A DNA stretch of 42,448 bases from a virus. Below the pieces are notes generated by a model that saw nothing but the letters and a program-made list of their open reading frames with translations, had not been told where the DNA came from and ran no database searches. The stretch lies in the IMG/VR virus record IMGVR_UViG_3300011466_000001, positions 1 through 42,448 of that record; one strand, 5' to 3'. A program made the translations under genes and the position numbers. Below are positions 9,768-13,498 of the stretch, in pieces. Position 1 is the stretch's first letter; every line of letters begins with the position of its first letter.

Positions 9768-10999
9768 CCCAACTCATAGATTACTTTCAGCTTGTCTGCT
9801 GAATACTCAAAGGCCTGTGTGCTCTTATAGTTCATTGTGTAGCCATTCTCCGACTCATACTGATCGTTAGGTTTTATTGTTCCTAACTGCCGATGAATAA
9901 CTCCTTTAAGGTTTTGGGCTTCCATTGAGTGATAATGCCCTTGGTGAATTTCAAGCCAACTACTCTTGCTCCATACGTCTCGAAACTCGGTAGCGAATAG
10001 CATAGGATAATCGCCCTTCTTGCCGAAGTGTCCATGAGTGAGCATAATGCCTACATTGTCTAGCTGATATGCAATCCTTGGTAGGTTGTGTTTGTTTACC
10101 GTTACTTGTGGATAGAGTGTTTCTAAGTACATTAGGAACAAATACTCAAAGTCACTGTGATTACCACTGGCAAATTCAATCCGCACCTCTGAGCTTTTTC
10201 TTAAAGATTCATCGATCAGCGTAATGAAGAATGTTTTAGCCAACTCAATTGCTTCGACCATATCTACATCTTCAAGTTGAGTACCTTTGATCGTTTGGCT
10301 TGCCTTCATAGCGTTTGAGTGAAAGATATCTCCCAACACTTCTATAACGATTGTCTTATAGCCTTTATTTATGATTGCTAATACATCGGATAGATAGGTT
10401 TCAAACTTTCGTTCCGACAAAATAGGGAAATGCAAATCAGCCAACGGTATGACTAGATTGCACTTCCCTTTGATAATTGGTTGAATTGTAATCGGTTTAG
10501 TACTTTGCAGCAATTTAGTTGCCAACGCTTGAATGCTAACTGCTGCCCTTGGCTTAACAACTATCTTTGATTGATAAAGCTGTATAAGTCCATCTAATTG
10601 GTTGTTCTGTTCCCAAATGTTGTTAGTCGCTTGGACCAGTTCCCAATTTTCGGGATCATATCCGTGTGCTTGTAAAACATAATCAGGATTCTTTGACTGC
10701 TCTTCAGTCATACGCAACTTGATAAGATTTGTCTGAGTACCATCTGATTTGATTTCTGTAGATACTACATTCTTCTTAGTCTTATCAGTTTGCTTAACAC
10801 GCATATTCTTTTCGCTCGGTGGCAACTTCAACCTAGCACGTTTACTTCTAACGCTTGGCCATGAAAACTCTTTGCCGAACTCCTCTGACAGCATAGGCGC
10901 TATCTCTATATTTGTTAGTCCTTCATTTGCCAATTCCGACAATCGTTTGACATGCTGTTCCGTCCATTTAGTTATGTCTGCCACCTCGCTTTTCTGCAA
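9764..10999 (-). CDS. Calcineurin-like metallophosphoesterase with an N-terminal HTH-like domain
   Basis: Ordered motifs DLH, GDIFH, GNHS, THGH and GHYH. The N-terminal ~60 aa look like a helix-turn-helix. Start is ambiguous: TTG at 10999 lies inside the upstream terminator U-tract, and GTG at 10984 is the alternative. Confidence 0.7.
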   Translation of the reverse strand: MQKSEVADITKWTEQHVKRLSELANEGLTNIEIAPMLSEEFGKEFSWPSVRSKRARLKLPPSEKNMRVKQTDKTKKNVVSTEIKSDGTQTNLIKLRMTEEQSKNPDYVLQAHGYDPENWELVQATNNIWEQNNQLDGLIQLYQSKIVVKPRAAVSIQALATKLLQSTKPITIQPIIKGKCNLVIPLADLHFPILSERKFETYLSDVLAIINKGYKTIVIEVLGDIFHSNAMKASQTIKGTQLEDVDMVEAIELAKTFFITLIDESLRKSSEVRIEFASGNHSDFEYLFLMYLETLYPQVTVNKHNLPRIAYQLDNVGIMLTHGHFGKKGDYPMLFATEFRDVWSKSSWLEIHQGHYHSMEAQNLKGVIHRQLGTIKPNDQYESENGYTMNYKSTQAFEYSADKLKVIYELG

Positions 11000-11026
11000 A
11001 ATAAAAAGCCACTCGTTATGAGTGAC
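10998..11026 (-). terminator. Intrinsic terminator closing the structured RNA region
   Basis: Minus strand: GUCACUC-auaac-GAGUGGC (7 bp, one G-U) followed by UUUUUAUUUUG. Confidence 0.65.
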
Positions 11027-11110
11027 TTGGATATGTACGTCCCCGCTTGGGCCACATTACTAAGAGGTGTGCGAGGTTTTACCAGTTTTTGGGATTACTG
11101 TGAACCCTAT

Positions 11111-11183
11111 TGGCGTGACCGGACTCGAACCGGTGCATTCTTGGGTATCGACCCCAACTGCTCTACCTCTGAGCTACACACCA
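11111..11183 (-). tRNA. Near-canonical tRNA-like gene (module C)
   Basis: Minus strand: acceptor UGGUGUG/CACGCCA, D arm GCUC-agaggua-GAGC, anticodon stem UUGGG/CCCAA with loop GUCGAUA, T arm ACCGG-UUCGAGU-CCGGU. There are 2 nt between the D and anticodon stems, and a 6-nt variable region. Confidence 0.45.
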
Positions 11184-11262
11184 ACTTGAGGGAGCTACCC
11201 TCTGCATGCATTGGGCAGGATGCGTATCACACTAGCTTTGTGCGAACAAATATCCTACCTAT

Positions 11263-11394
11263 GTCACTGGAGTGGCACCGCCCCACTCACGAACTGGTTC
11301 TTAAAACATTAGGAGCGAGAGTTTCAACACAGGTAGCTAATCTGATTATGCCAGTTCTATCTCGCCGTGCGTCTTCTACTTCCGCCACAGTGAC
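11263..11394 (-). ncRNA. tRNA-like module B (132 nt)
   Basis: Acceptor GUCACUG/CAGUGAC. Class-II (Leu-like) D arm UGGCGGAAGUAGAAGACGC. A 7-bp arm GGCGAGA/UCUCGCU encloses 39 nt. The T-like arm GAGUGG-ggcggug-CCACUC has a 6-bp stem and a non-canonical loop. Confidence 0.4.
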
Positions 11395-11501
11395 CGAAGC
11401 TTGGTGGTGTACAGATAGCACACTTACTACATTGCCGTATGTAGCACCGTATAGCTTCTTCACGATCTTTTTCGGTGATCGTAACCATCATAGGCATTTA
11501 A

Positions 11502-11605
11502 GTCACTGGCAAGGAATCGAACCTTGCATGTTGAGTTTCACTCCTTAGCAAGTGCACTTGCCTTCCCAACTAGGACTTAGCGTTTACCCTTTCCGCCACA
11601 GTGAC
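11502..11605 (-). ncRNA. tRNA-like module A (104 nt)
   Basis: Same acceptor GUCACUG/CAGUGAC. D arm GCG-gaaaggguaaa-CGC. T arm GCAAGG-UUCGAUU-CCUUGC has a canonical T loop but a 6-bp stem. The anticodon region is replaced by an irregular arm containing the palindrome GCAAGUGCACUUGC. Confidence 0.45.
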
Positions 11606-11717
11606 TATCGCCCACAGAATAATTTTTACGTATCAAAAGGAGGTTGAATGCCGTTGTGCTTGTGGGCGATATCTTACTAATACCATTATAATTCATTATT
11701 TCAATGGTTGCTGTTGC

Positions 11718-12131
11718 TTAATTGTTGCTTTTAGCCTTGATAACATAGTCTTTTTTGAATTGAACTTTTTTCAAAATGGCTGAATGATGTTTTCGGATAT
11801 ACTGGTACGTGTAACCAAGTTCATCTGCAATTTCTTGTAGGGTCAGCCCTTCAACATATTTCATACGCAATATGTGTTGCTCAATTCCTTTGAAAGAGTA
11901 AATAACCTTTCTCAGATCAAAGCGGTAATTCATTTGCACTGCCAGCTCATACTCCAAGTTATCTATAATATCCTCTAATTTACTAGCCTTCGATTCTTTT
12001 ACCAAAGAATATCTTCCCAAGTCATTGGGGTTCTTCCATCTATCAAGTTCTTCTTTGTATGTTTCAAGTTCCCAATCAAGCAAAGCAATTTTTTGTTCCC
12101 ACTCTTGATACTTACTCAGCCATTCGTACAA
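11718..12131 (-). CDS. Late-gene transcriptional activator (ArpU/RinA-like, sigma-70 region-4-type HTH)
   Basis: 137 aa. The C-terminal block ILRMKYVEGLTLQEIADELGYTYQYIRKHHSAILKK is sigma region-4-like. It sits upstream of the packaging genes. TTG start preceded by SD GAGGAGGG. Confidence 0.6.
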   Translation of the reverse strand: MYEWLSKYQEWEQKIALLDWELETYKEELDRWKNPNDLGRYSLVKESKASKLEDIIDNLEYELAVQMNYRFDLRKVIYSFKGIEQHILRMKYVEGLTLQEIADELGYTYQYIRKHHSAILKKVQFKKDYVIKAKSNN

Positions 12132-12694: not shown

Positions 12695-13498
12695 ATGTCA
12701 GATGAAAAAAAATCCCTAATTAATATTGAACTTATCCCAAAAGAGCTCATAACCAATATCTTTGGCCCTGCATCAAAATCTATCGGCGAAGGATTGGGAG
12801 GAATTGCTAACTATGTGATGGGACCTTTACGTAGGCTCAATATTACAAGCGAAAAATCTTTCCAAGATTTTGTTGACAAAATTAATACAAATACTGATGA
12901 AATACCACCTGAAAATAGAGATATTTCTAAACTCGGTCTGGCTTTGAAAACAATGGAAGATGCTAGATACCAACTTGAAAATGAAGAAATGCGTGAATAC
13001 TTTGCCAATCTTTTAGCGGGTTTAGTTGATAATAGAAAAAACAGTCAATCTTCACCCAGGTTTTCTATGATTTTGTCTGAATTGACCACAAAAGAAGCAA
13101 GACTACTTTCTGAATTTTATAATTTAAAAGGCATTCCTACAGAATCATTAAGAGTTCAGAAATCTAATGGAGATGGTGTGGACCTAATCGAAAATTTACT
13201 CTTAATTGATGAAAACAATTATGTTGATGAGAACTTAGCTATAAAAACTTTGCAATCATATGGACTAATTGACATCGCTCCTTCAGTTCTGCTTAAAGAT
13301 GAAAAAAAATTCGCACTTTATGACATTTTCGAAAATTCAAAGCAATTTTCAGATACCAAGGATCAGTTAATAGAAGATTTTCAGAATCATCCTTATTTTA
13401 TTGGAATTGATTTTGATATTATTAACTCTCGTGGTTCAATAACGATAACAGATTTAGGAGATATATTTTGTTCAATGATTTTCCCAGAAAAAGAGTAG
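12695..13498 (+). CDS. DUF4393 / Abi-alpha-like protein (candidate abortive-infection or exclusion moron)
   Basis: 267 aa on the opposite strand to all neighbours. The N-terminus (GPASKSIGEGLGGIANYVMGPLRR) and the block MREYFANLLAGLVDNRKNSQSSPRFSMILSELTTKEARLL match my recollection of DUF4393 signature regions. It has its own SD, promoter element and terminator. Confidence 0.55.
   Translation: MSDEKKSLINIELIPKELITNIFGPASKSIGEGLGGIANYVMGPLRRLNITSEKSFQDFVDKINTNTDEIPPENRDISKLGLALKTMEDARYQLENEEMREYFANLLAGLVDNRKNSQSSPRFSMILSELTTKEARLLSEFYNLKGIPTESLRVQKSNGDGVDLIENLLLIDENNYVDENLAIKTLQSYGLIDIAPSVLLKDEKKFALYDIFENSKQFSDTKDQLIEDFQNHPYFIGIDFDIINSRGSITITDLGDIFCSMIFPEKE

Follow-up and report, generated by a model that had tools for sequence, protein, structure and literature searches.

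We analyzed a structured region on the minus strand (11717..10997) of the IMG/VR virus record IMGVR_UViG_3300011466_000001; the whole stretch studied, 42,448 nucleotides (nt) long, is called the window below. We suggest, with a probability of roughly 60% for the explanation as a whole, that this region forms a non-coding unit of transcription, or a leader, with which the late (packaging) operon of a temperate Enterococcus phage begins. The region is a mosaic assembled from exchangeable small RNA cassettes, and two of them, modules A and B, very probably belong to a family of tRNA-Leu-derived scaffolds without an anticodon, and not to GOLLD or ROOL, the large ornate RNA classes that the original prediction, made from the sequence alone, had named as candidates. 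The evidence consists of the anatomy of the array, the family membership of the modules, covariation, cassette swapping, flanks that are compatible with processing, and the absence of the modules from Rfam.

Two tRNA-like modules without an anticodon arm

The original prediction had read three consecutive tRNA-like cloverleaf modules in this region. Three tRNA-like units are present, of which only one (tRNA C, described below) is called a tRNA by ARAGORN and Rfam, and the other two are modules that share the exact 15-mer GTCACTGTGGCGGAA:

Module A, 11605-11501, minus strand: acceptor stem GUCACUG/CAGUGAC, tRNA-Leu-type D arm, 51-nt insert, discriminator U.
Module B, 11394-11262, minus strand: acceptor stem as in module A, D loop AAGUAGAAGA, 79-nt insert, discriminator A.

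Both modules start with the identical 15-mer GUCACUGUGGCGGAA, of which 0.04 copies would be expected by chance. They have in common a 7-bp acceptor stem, a D arm with a 3-bp Leu-type stem, a 6-bp T stem with a 7-nt loop (GCAAGG/CCUUGC with UUCGAUU in module A, GAGUGG/CCACUC with GGCGGUG in module B) and a variable insert, and these are the features by which we define the new family. The D arm is nearly identical to that of bacterial tRNA-Leu, as in the Escherichia coli sequence. Neither folding nor ARAGORN revealed a 5-bp stem with a 7-nt anticodon loop between the D and T arms of the two modules; ARAGORN made no tRNA call on them, and Rfam gave no match even at E ≤ 10.

The insert of module A contains the hairpins GCAAG-UGCA-CUUGC and GAGU-GAA-ACUC, and the minimum free energy (MFE) structure of the module is a cloverleaf-like fold with three inner hairpins. 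This module was also found in one related locus (L023; related loci carry L numbers here). The insert of module B is unique among the fetched loci. By inspection of this one sequence, it may form a pseudoknot of two crossing helices, the candidate stems being 11366-11360 with 11320-11314 (S1) and 11357-11351 with 11297-11291 (S2). We built an alignment (A1) and a covariance model (R1) from 26 diverse modules; R1 scored module A at 77 bits and module B at 72 bits, although these matches are partly by construction because the two modules are themselves among the 26 seed sequences.

Distribution and origin of the scaffold family

A scan of IMG/VR with the 15-mer returned at least 120 viral stretches. 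R1 recognized a full-length module at more than 45 bits in 85 of the first 100 stretches among those listed, and exactly two in the window. Altogether, the scaffold is present in more than 100 Enterococcus phage and prophage contigs, and a 26-nt pattern identified 12 Enterococcus prophage loci (11 named species or strains) among 14 genome hits. The relatives were gathered by exact patterns and are biased to close kin, and the E-values of R1 are rough. BLAST searches with the flanks led to phages of the E. gallinarum/casseliflavus group, and a blastn comparison of the region with 50,697 phage records matched only the 5' hairpin of phage phiEG37K. When arrays served as later queries, phage EH-TP1 proved to contain unannotated arrays, and isolated cassettes turned up in other places. 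By similarity, the window presumably has an Enterococcus host.

We also analyzed 72 unique modules by ARAGORN with introns allowed. One was called a plain tRNA (L085), one a tRNA 'with intron' and 70 were non-tRNA, so that the idea of a tRNA with an intron was rejected. The exception, L085, is a phage tRNA-Leu(UAA) with a 5-bp T stem and an encoded CCA that sits in a cluster of real tRNAs. Like the modules, it has the identical 7-bp acceptor stem, a class-II Leu-type D arm (GUGGCGGAAUAGGUA...) and a 7-nt T-type loop. Given that L085 shares its acceptor stem and D arm with the modules, we consider that the family descends from a phage tRNA-Leu.

Two observations were made outside typical Enterococcus arrays. 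Exact Enterococcus-type modules occur in a 518-nt contig of Vibrio olivae (L250) and in a low-coverage contig of Streptomyces sp. P17 (L254), where they are most likely assembly contamination. Lactobacillus phage P1 (L242) has two unannotated tRNA-like elements (2118-2176 and 2248-2341) between terS and terL, adjoining an annotated tRNA-Pro and tRNA-Gly. Their R1 scores are weak (~20 bits), and one of them, 59 nt long, consists of acceptor, D and 6-bp T arms with no anticodon arm.

Covariation of the scaffold and diversity of the inserts

In alignment A1, 97.3% of the cells of the scaffold are paired, and five of the six T-stem pairs have changed on both sides, as in the variants GCAAGG/CCUUGC, GCAAUG/CAUUGC and GAGUGG/CCACUC. 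The covariation score of the scaffold is 0.241, compared with 0.103 in shuffled alignments, and none of 500 shuffles scored as high. The acceptor stem has also changed: in phage EH-TP1 it reads GUCGCUG/CAGCGAC, with A4-U69 replaced by G4-C69, and an A.C intermediate occurs in eight modules. Moreover, the type of D loop and the type of T loop are almost perfectly associated, and a given insert can occur in scaffolds of different subtypes. This linkage, which holds despite inserts being shared across subtypes, suggests that the partnership of the D and T loops (the elbow) has been maintained.

The inserts fall into approximately 31 unrelated types, with lengths of 28-112 nt in the set of 72 modules and up to ~190 nt elsewhere. 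Compensatory changes occur within types, for example from GGUCAA/UUGACC to GGCUGA/UCAGUC and from GAUACC/GGUAUC to GAUAUC/GAUAUC. By inspection, several insert types share a crossing topology in which stem 1 directly follows the D arm and stem 2 ends just before an (A/G)UG that precedes the T stem; these inserts are candidate pseudoknots.

Comparison with known RNA classes

We searched Rfam 15 (4227 families) at the gathering score on the whole window and at E ≤ 10 on 10900-11850, as well as at the gathering score in 21 related loci and at E ≤ 0.1 in two further phage loci. The single hit in the window was a tRNA at 11183-11110, which is also the one tRNA found by ARAGORN and the only element to reach the RF00005 threshold; modules A and B and tRNA C all lack a canonical anticodon loop. 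In the related loci, Rfam found tRNAs only, besides an unrelated core-genome small RNA, Ref1C, located 1.4 kb off in L082.

Neither the GOLLD nor the ROOL model matched the window at the gathering score or at E ≤ 10, nor did they match any of the 23 related loci, and membership in these classes was therefore abandoned. The genomic context of GOLLD and ROOL is indeed found here, namely an Enterococcus prophage with a tRNA inside the region, although context alone does not define membership. No transfer-messenger RNA (tmRNA) was detected in the window by ARAGORN or Rfam, and pair 3:70 of the module acceptor is C-G and not G3:U70. The YrlA/Y RNA and riboswitch models likewise gave no Rfam hit in the window, even at E ≤ 10 on 10900-11850. 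A full-text literature search returned no description of this scaffold family, which is also missing from Rfam, so it appears to be undescribed so far. In other words, what the original prediction had offered as its fallback, an uncharacterised phage RNA, is what we found: a structured, non-coding region at the head of the late operon that falls into no curated class.

Organization of the array and exchange of cassettes

The other elements of the array and the adjacent genes are as follows, in 5' to 3' order on the minus strand.

Upstream gene, 11718-12131, minus strand: 137 aa, sigma-70 region-4/phrog_36 regulator (ArpU, sigma-like).
Leader after the arpU stop, 11684..11717, minus strand: perfect TATAAT 11 nt upstream of hp5, no recognisable -35.
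Long-range hairpin hp5, 11606..11671, minus strand: 11-bp stem UAUCGCCCACA/UGUGGGCGAUA (11671-11661/11616-11606).
A-B spacer, 11395..11500, minus strand: hairpins 11483-11461, 11446-11425 and 11423-11407, closed by AAGCUU pairing.
B-C spacer, 11185..11261, minus strand: long hairpin 11259-11214 and hairpin GAGGG-UAGCU-CCCUC at 11202-11188.
tRNA C, 11110..11183, minus strand: ARAGORN call, class-I cloverleaf, anticodon CGA (Ser), no CCA encoded.
Weak T-arm-like hairpin, 11091..11107, minus strand: GGGUUCACAGUAAUCCC, the 3' flank of the tRNA slot.
Hairpin hp3b, 11041..11076, minus strand: P1 CCUCGC/GCGGGG, P2 ACAC/GUGG, 11-nt loop CUCUUAGUAAU, 3' bulge CCCAA.
Intrinsic terminator, 10998..11028, minus strand: 9-bp stem, 5-nt loop, UUUUUAUUUU, found by terminator scan.
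Downstream genes, in order: 411-aa phrog_704 protein, 70-aa protein, TerS, TerL.

All the checkable features that had drawn attention to the region held up. It has a G+C content of 47.0% (window, 38.9%), and the earlier hand counts (34/60 in 11101-11160 and 17/60 in 12701-12760) are exact. The longest minus-strand open reading frame (ORF) in 11000-11717 encodes 58 aa, in agreement with the claim that none reaches 60 aa, and a Pfam and PHROG search of all ORFs of the region on both strands, including a 198-aa ORF on the plus strand (10952-11548), gave no match. The region begins, as had been stated, after the stop of an ArpU/RinA-like activator gene, and the terminator just before the next gene was recovered at 11028..11006 with a U-run to 10998. 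The whole region folds better than 20 of 20 shuffles (z = -3.6), and five of its seven sub-units have z-scores from -2.4 to -3.7; module B (z = -0.06) and the 3' end (z = -1.4) are similar to shuffles.

The pieces of the array recur independently of one another. The hairpin hp5, the A-B spacer and the terminator each recur in 12 loci and hp3b in six, while module A, the B-C spacer and tRNA C each recur in a single locus (L023, L102 and L034, respectively). In an E. entomosocium prophage (L246), arpU, the leader, hp5 and the spacer are 97-100% identical to the window, whereas both module inserts and the downstream cassettes differ. Phage phiEG37K has kept hp5 and the terminator and has no module. 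The arrays that we examined open with a hairpin or promoter region and close with a terminator immediately before the first late gene. Among 136 related loci, 67 have a terminator of the motif family of the window at most 2.5 kb downstream of their first module, and in these 67 the array spans 213-1121 nt. Other arrays contain true or degenerate tRNAs in a slot with conserved flanks, hairpins that correspond to a T arm only, and an occasional inserted ORF. Two such insertions are an HNH-type endonuclease gene in the L034 array (~2950-2320), which splits a tRNA-like module right after GUCACUGUGGCGGAA, and a protein-coding gene in the L067 array (~11750-11330).

A further cassette, GCAACCGAGG...GUGUAGGUUGC, recurs in other arrays and lies outside the window. 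It consists of GCAACCGAGG, a G-rich segment, a small covarying hairpin and (G/A)UGUAGGUUGC, has no Rfam match, and was observed in L002, L007, L009, L018, L023, L034, L041, L054, L079, L081 and L246.

Among the genes near the array, we found no RNA enzymes. The 411-aa neighbor is annotated as phrog_704, 'DNA repair exonuclease'. At its start (10999-10960, minus strand), a GAGG is followed 8 nt later by an in-frame AUA, and AUU occupies this position in L023, L034 and L113; given the lack of a well-placed canonical start codon, the gene may use a non-canonical AUA/AUU start. A 267-aa plus-strand gene of unknown function (phrog_2232; 12695-13498) lies amid the minus-strand early genes in an A+T-rich island (~30% G+C), a moron-like arrangement.

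Hairpins, spacers and the tRNA slot

No canonical promoter was found by a sigma-70 promoter scan. The TATAAT of the leader is a putative late promoter, and in related loci a -10-like hexamer (TAAATT, TAAAAT or TATAAA), often with a preceding TGn, lies 10-11 nt upstream of the hairpin. For hp5, the original prediction had described a perfect 10-bp helix (11670-11661/11616-11607), which is indeed perfect and extends to 11 bp. The hairpin stops one base before module A, folds with a z-score of -2.4 and is conserved at 96-100% in its 12 loci, including the module-free phiEG37K. Its 44-nt loop is conserved and contains ACCUCCUUUU (11635-11644, minus strand), which resembles the 3' end of 16S rRNA; on the plus strand, this part of the loop reads AAAGGAGG-N5-ATG, and just 10 codons come after the ATG.

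The A-B spacer (z = -3.7) is 94-100% identical in 12 other loci, in which it lies between different pairs of modules. Its first two hairpins are the ones noticed earlier by eye, UACGAUC/GAUCGUG (11483-11477/11467-11461) and UGCUACAU/AUGUAGUA (11446-11439/11432-11425), and both are present in the MFE fold. The B-C spacer (z = -3.5) is 99% identical in L102, and its hairpin at 11202-11188 forms the 5' flank of what we call the tRNA slot; the flank GAGGGUAGCUCCCUCAAGU precedes differing tRNAs or tRNA-like elements in L002, L023, L041, L079 and L113. The 3' flank recurs as AUAGGGUUYAYAGUWAUCCC in L001, L002, L023, L030, L041, L054, L079 and L113.

In the window, the slot is occupied by tRNA C, which scores 49 bits against RF00005 (gathering score 29) and has a 97% identical copy in L034. 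Its anticodon loop, GUCGAUA, is atypical, with G32 and U37, and there is no long variable arm. Because of U37 and a Ser anticodon on a body with a short variable arm, we doubt that this tRNA is active in decoding. The contents of the slot vary: L018 and L026 have an apparently normal tRNA-Lys(UUU), judging from anticodon loops read by eye, the window and L030 have tRNAs with aberrant anticodon loops, the slot-C element also occurs in L003, and L049 retains a 38-nt remnant.

A scan with the loop pattern of hp3b returned at least 112 viral contigs, including Lactobacillus phages P1, Nyseid and SA-C12. Its P1 stem covaries at five of six pairs, with 94% of cells paired and a covariation score of 0.359, compared with 0.093 in shuffles (none of 500 as high), and P2 (ACAC/GUG), the 11-nt loop CUCUUARYAAU and the 5-nt 3' bulge (CCCAN) are nearly invariant. 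An Rfam search with hp3b gave no match. In many phages a U-run directly follows hp3b, and then a ribosome-binding site and a gene; in loci L258-L358 the hairpin often serves as a terminator as well, immediately ahead of a gene (HNH, Abi-like and others). Its loop carries the anti-Shine-Dalgarno-like CACCUCUUA, and that of hp5 carries ACCUCCUUUU. This hairpin looks like a specific recognition element at the entry to downstream genes, and it is a second uncatalogued motif, one that may control entry into the late genes. The terminator that follows in the window leaves no gap before the 411-aa gene with its ribosome-binding site and start.

Processing signals and proposed mechanism

It has previously been reported for Bacillus subtilis and Firmicutes that tRNA precursors without an encoded CCA are cleaved by RNase P first and then by RNase Z after the discriminator; a cytidine after the discriminator inhibits RNase Z, and the identity of the discriminator is irrelevant (PMC1874595, PMC7479834). 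In addition, an engineered tRNA scaffold was processed and stable in E. coli (PMC3753655). We examined 88 unique module contexts. Immediately after the discriminator, 85 of them have a U and two a C, and CCA occurs in at most one, the true tRNA-Leu of L085. The discriminator itself is U in 59, A in 22 and G in seven, and the base at position -1 is U in 61. The flanks of the modules are thus compatible with processing by RNase P and RNase Z, which we consider about as likely as not to take place. In their acceptor stem, D arm and T arm, the modules also retain what the maturation machinery of the host reads in a tRNA.

We propose the following mechanism. A promoter with a -10 element only, 10-11 nt upstream of hp5, would fire once ArpU has been made, and hp5 would be the protected 5' end of the transcript. 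RNase P would cleave at the 5' end of each module, RNase Z would cleave after the discriminator, and CCA would then be added. In this way, stable tRNA-shaped RNAs of ~105 and ~133 nt would be released, displaying their inserts, and hp3b and the terminator would meter read-through into the late genes. The insert would be the fast-changing, selected and exchangeable part, and its most likely partner would be a factor of the host or of a rival phage. Such a binding or decoy role is a tentative guess, made because the diversity and swapping of the inserts resemble those of conflict loci. Equally speculative is the idea of a natural 'tRNA-scaffold display', in which an anticodon-less tRNA-Leu chassis, matured by the host, would express swapped aptamers or decoys in phage-host or phage-phage conflict; the inserts might, for example, bind immune sensors or effectors, or sequester signalling molecules.

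Several points weigh against this explanation. Transcript ends, processing, the function of the inserts and every mechanistic step are deduced from sequence. The nested fold of module B is no better than those of shuffles, and its pseudoknot depends on one sequence. Collection by the exact 15-mer makes the invariance of the 5' strand of the acceptor and of the 5' side of the D arm partly constructed. The modules are dispensable for late transcription, because phiEG37K has the hairpin and terminator without any module. The 6-bp T stem would give an acceptor/T stack of 13 bp, compared with the canonical 12 bp, and recognition by RNase P and RNase Z could be impaired or shifted. Finally, a search for targets of the inserts by complementarity to the rest of the phage stayed at the level of chance and found none.

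Three other ideas were considered and set aside. An antisense role by analogy with P4 CI and P1 C4 was rejected, as stretches of 11 to 13 nt in the array find a complement on either strand of the phage about as often as chance predicts. Leucylation, or a LeuRS decoy, was set aside; most modules have U as discriminator, and one D-loop type is without GG. A terminator/antiterminator pairing of CAGUGACU (3' strand of the module) with AGUCACUC (5' strand of the terminator) was dropped because it amounts to only 5 bp in E. faecalis-type arrays and because the terminator is the same in the module-free phiEG37K.

Alternative explanations

The terminator lies so close to the first late gene that no other promoter would fit in between, and the hairpin-terminator frame is conserved even without modules. 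The region might primarily be a cis-acting leader that gates late-gene transcription or translation by attenuation or antitermination, with the modules as accessories or sensors. The invariant loop of hp3b, followed in many phages by a U-run and a gene, and the anti-Shine-Dalgarno-like ACCUCCUUUU and CACCUCUUA in the hp5 and hp3b loops point in the same direction. However, we identified no antiterminator pairing as an alternative fold, a cis switch would hardly account for inserts that are hypervariable, and the downstream genes vary among phages. A purely cis-acting leader is therefore improbable, whereas a leader function is compatible with, and not exclusive of, the explanation that we prefer.

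Slightly less probable again is a decaying tRNA cluster, whose pseudogenes and recombination debris would no longer have a function. The derivation of the scaffold from a real tRNA-Leu (L085) would suit this idea, as would the degenerate anticodon loops of the slot-C tRNAs, the T-arm-only remnants and truncated tRNAs in related arrays (L049, L081, L246), the insertions of HNH or other ORFs (L034, L067) and the lack of modules in phiEG37K. However, neutral decay should affect the acceptor, D and T arms no less than the anticodon arm, and the scaffold is intact in more than 70 distinct modules, with compensatory changes in T stem and acceptor and with the 6-bp T stem and the post-discriminator U kept. 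Furthermore, the inserts have compensatory changes of their own and stable tetraloops, and a module consistently comes first in the array. Both this cluster and the purely cis-acting leader are possible, and they fit the data less well than the scaffold array that we propose.

We also considered that the whole region folds and works as one unit, a large ornate RNA like GOLLD or ROOL, for instance as a multimeric cage. It shares the niche of ROOL and GOLLD, being several hundred nt of highly structured sequence in a Lactobacillales prophage with tRNAs beside or within it (PMC5737381, PMC12286853), and the whole-region z-score of -3.6 agrees with this. Nevertheless, there was no GOLLD or ROOL hit in the window or the related loci, no long-range helix is conserved beyond the local hp5, and the pieces recur independently in different combinations, orders and numbers, with different inserts between nearly identical flanks (as in the window and L246). 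A single unit of this kind is highly unlikely. As for a DNA-level element (a cos/pac site or recombination hot spot) or a plus-strand protein gene, the position just upstream of the packaging genes and the 198-aa ORF would allow them, but the T-loop consensus, the G-U pairs that exist on the minus strand only and the tRNA ancestry speak for RNA, and the ORF, without a Pfam or PHROG match, cannot be conserved across mosaic arrays, so that we give this almost no weight.

Relation to known systems and significance

Compared with a canonical tRNA, the modules have no anticodon or 7-nt anticodon loop, a T stem of 6 instead of 5 bp and no encoded CCA. Their middle part is 28-190 nt long and unrelated between members, and ARAGORN and RF00005 do not detect modules A and B. 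They resemble tmRNA in that the ends form a tRNA-like acceptor/T structure and the middle is replaced by another RNA, pseudoknotted in tmRNA and putatively so in the modules; unlike tmRNA, they have neither G3:U70 nor a tag reading frame, their D stem is well formed and they are far smaller. Other tRNA mimics, among them viral tRNA-like elements that are processed by RNase P/Z, copy the elbow and acceptor of tRNA and so engage enzymes that bind tRNA, and some of them are encoded by phages. The CI RNA of phage P4 and the C4 RNA of P1/P7 are small regulatory RNAs that RNase P releases from an operon leader; their variable loops set specificity, and their targets, to which they base-pair, lie within the transcript itself. 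In contrast, complementarity between our array and the phage is not above chance.

The closest design is man-made. In the engineered 'tRNA scaffold', too, an arbitrary structured insert stands where the anticodon stem-loop would be, acceptor stem, T arm and D arm are retained, and the outcome is precise processing and stability in vivo (PMC3753655), whereas the modules are natural and occur in arrays in phage genomes. YrlA is also a non-coding copy of the tRNA elbow and acceptor, and it engages tRNA-binding enzymes (PMC4201824); it has an end-formed Ro-binding stem and accompanies an rsr gene, whereas such a stem is not evident in the array, which has no Rfam hit. GOLLD and ROOL occupy the same niche, tRNA islands of Lactobacillales phages and prophages, and their function is unknown (PMC5737381, PMC12286853); the array differs from them in having no covariance-model match and in being a modular mosaic instead of a single conserved architecture.

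That non-coding RNAs can mimic tRNA has been established with tmRNA, Y RNAs and viral tRNA-like elements. What differs here is a large natural family that uses the tRNA body as a chassis, in which dozens of folded inserts, unrelated to one another, take the place of the anticodon arm, and which is arrayed and swapped between phages. The scaffold is a third distinct occupant of the niche of GOLLD and ROOL, that of structured RNA beside phage tRNAs, and its modules of 90-250 nt are, unlike GOLLD and ROOL, small and easy to test. Its design mirrors a biotechnological trick for stabilising foreign RNAs in bacteria, and this suggests that phages use the tRNA maturation of their hosts to deliver fast-evolving functional RNAs.

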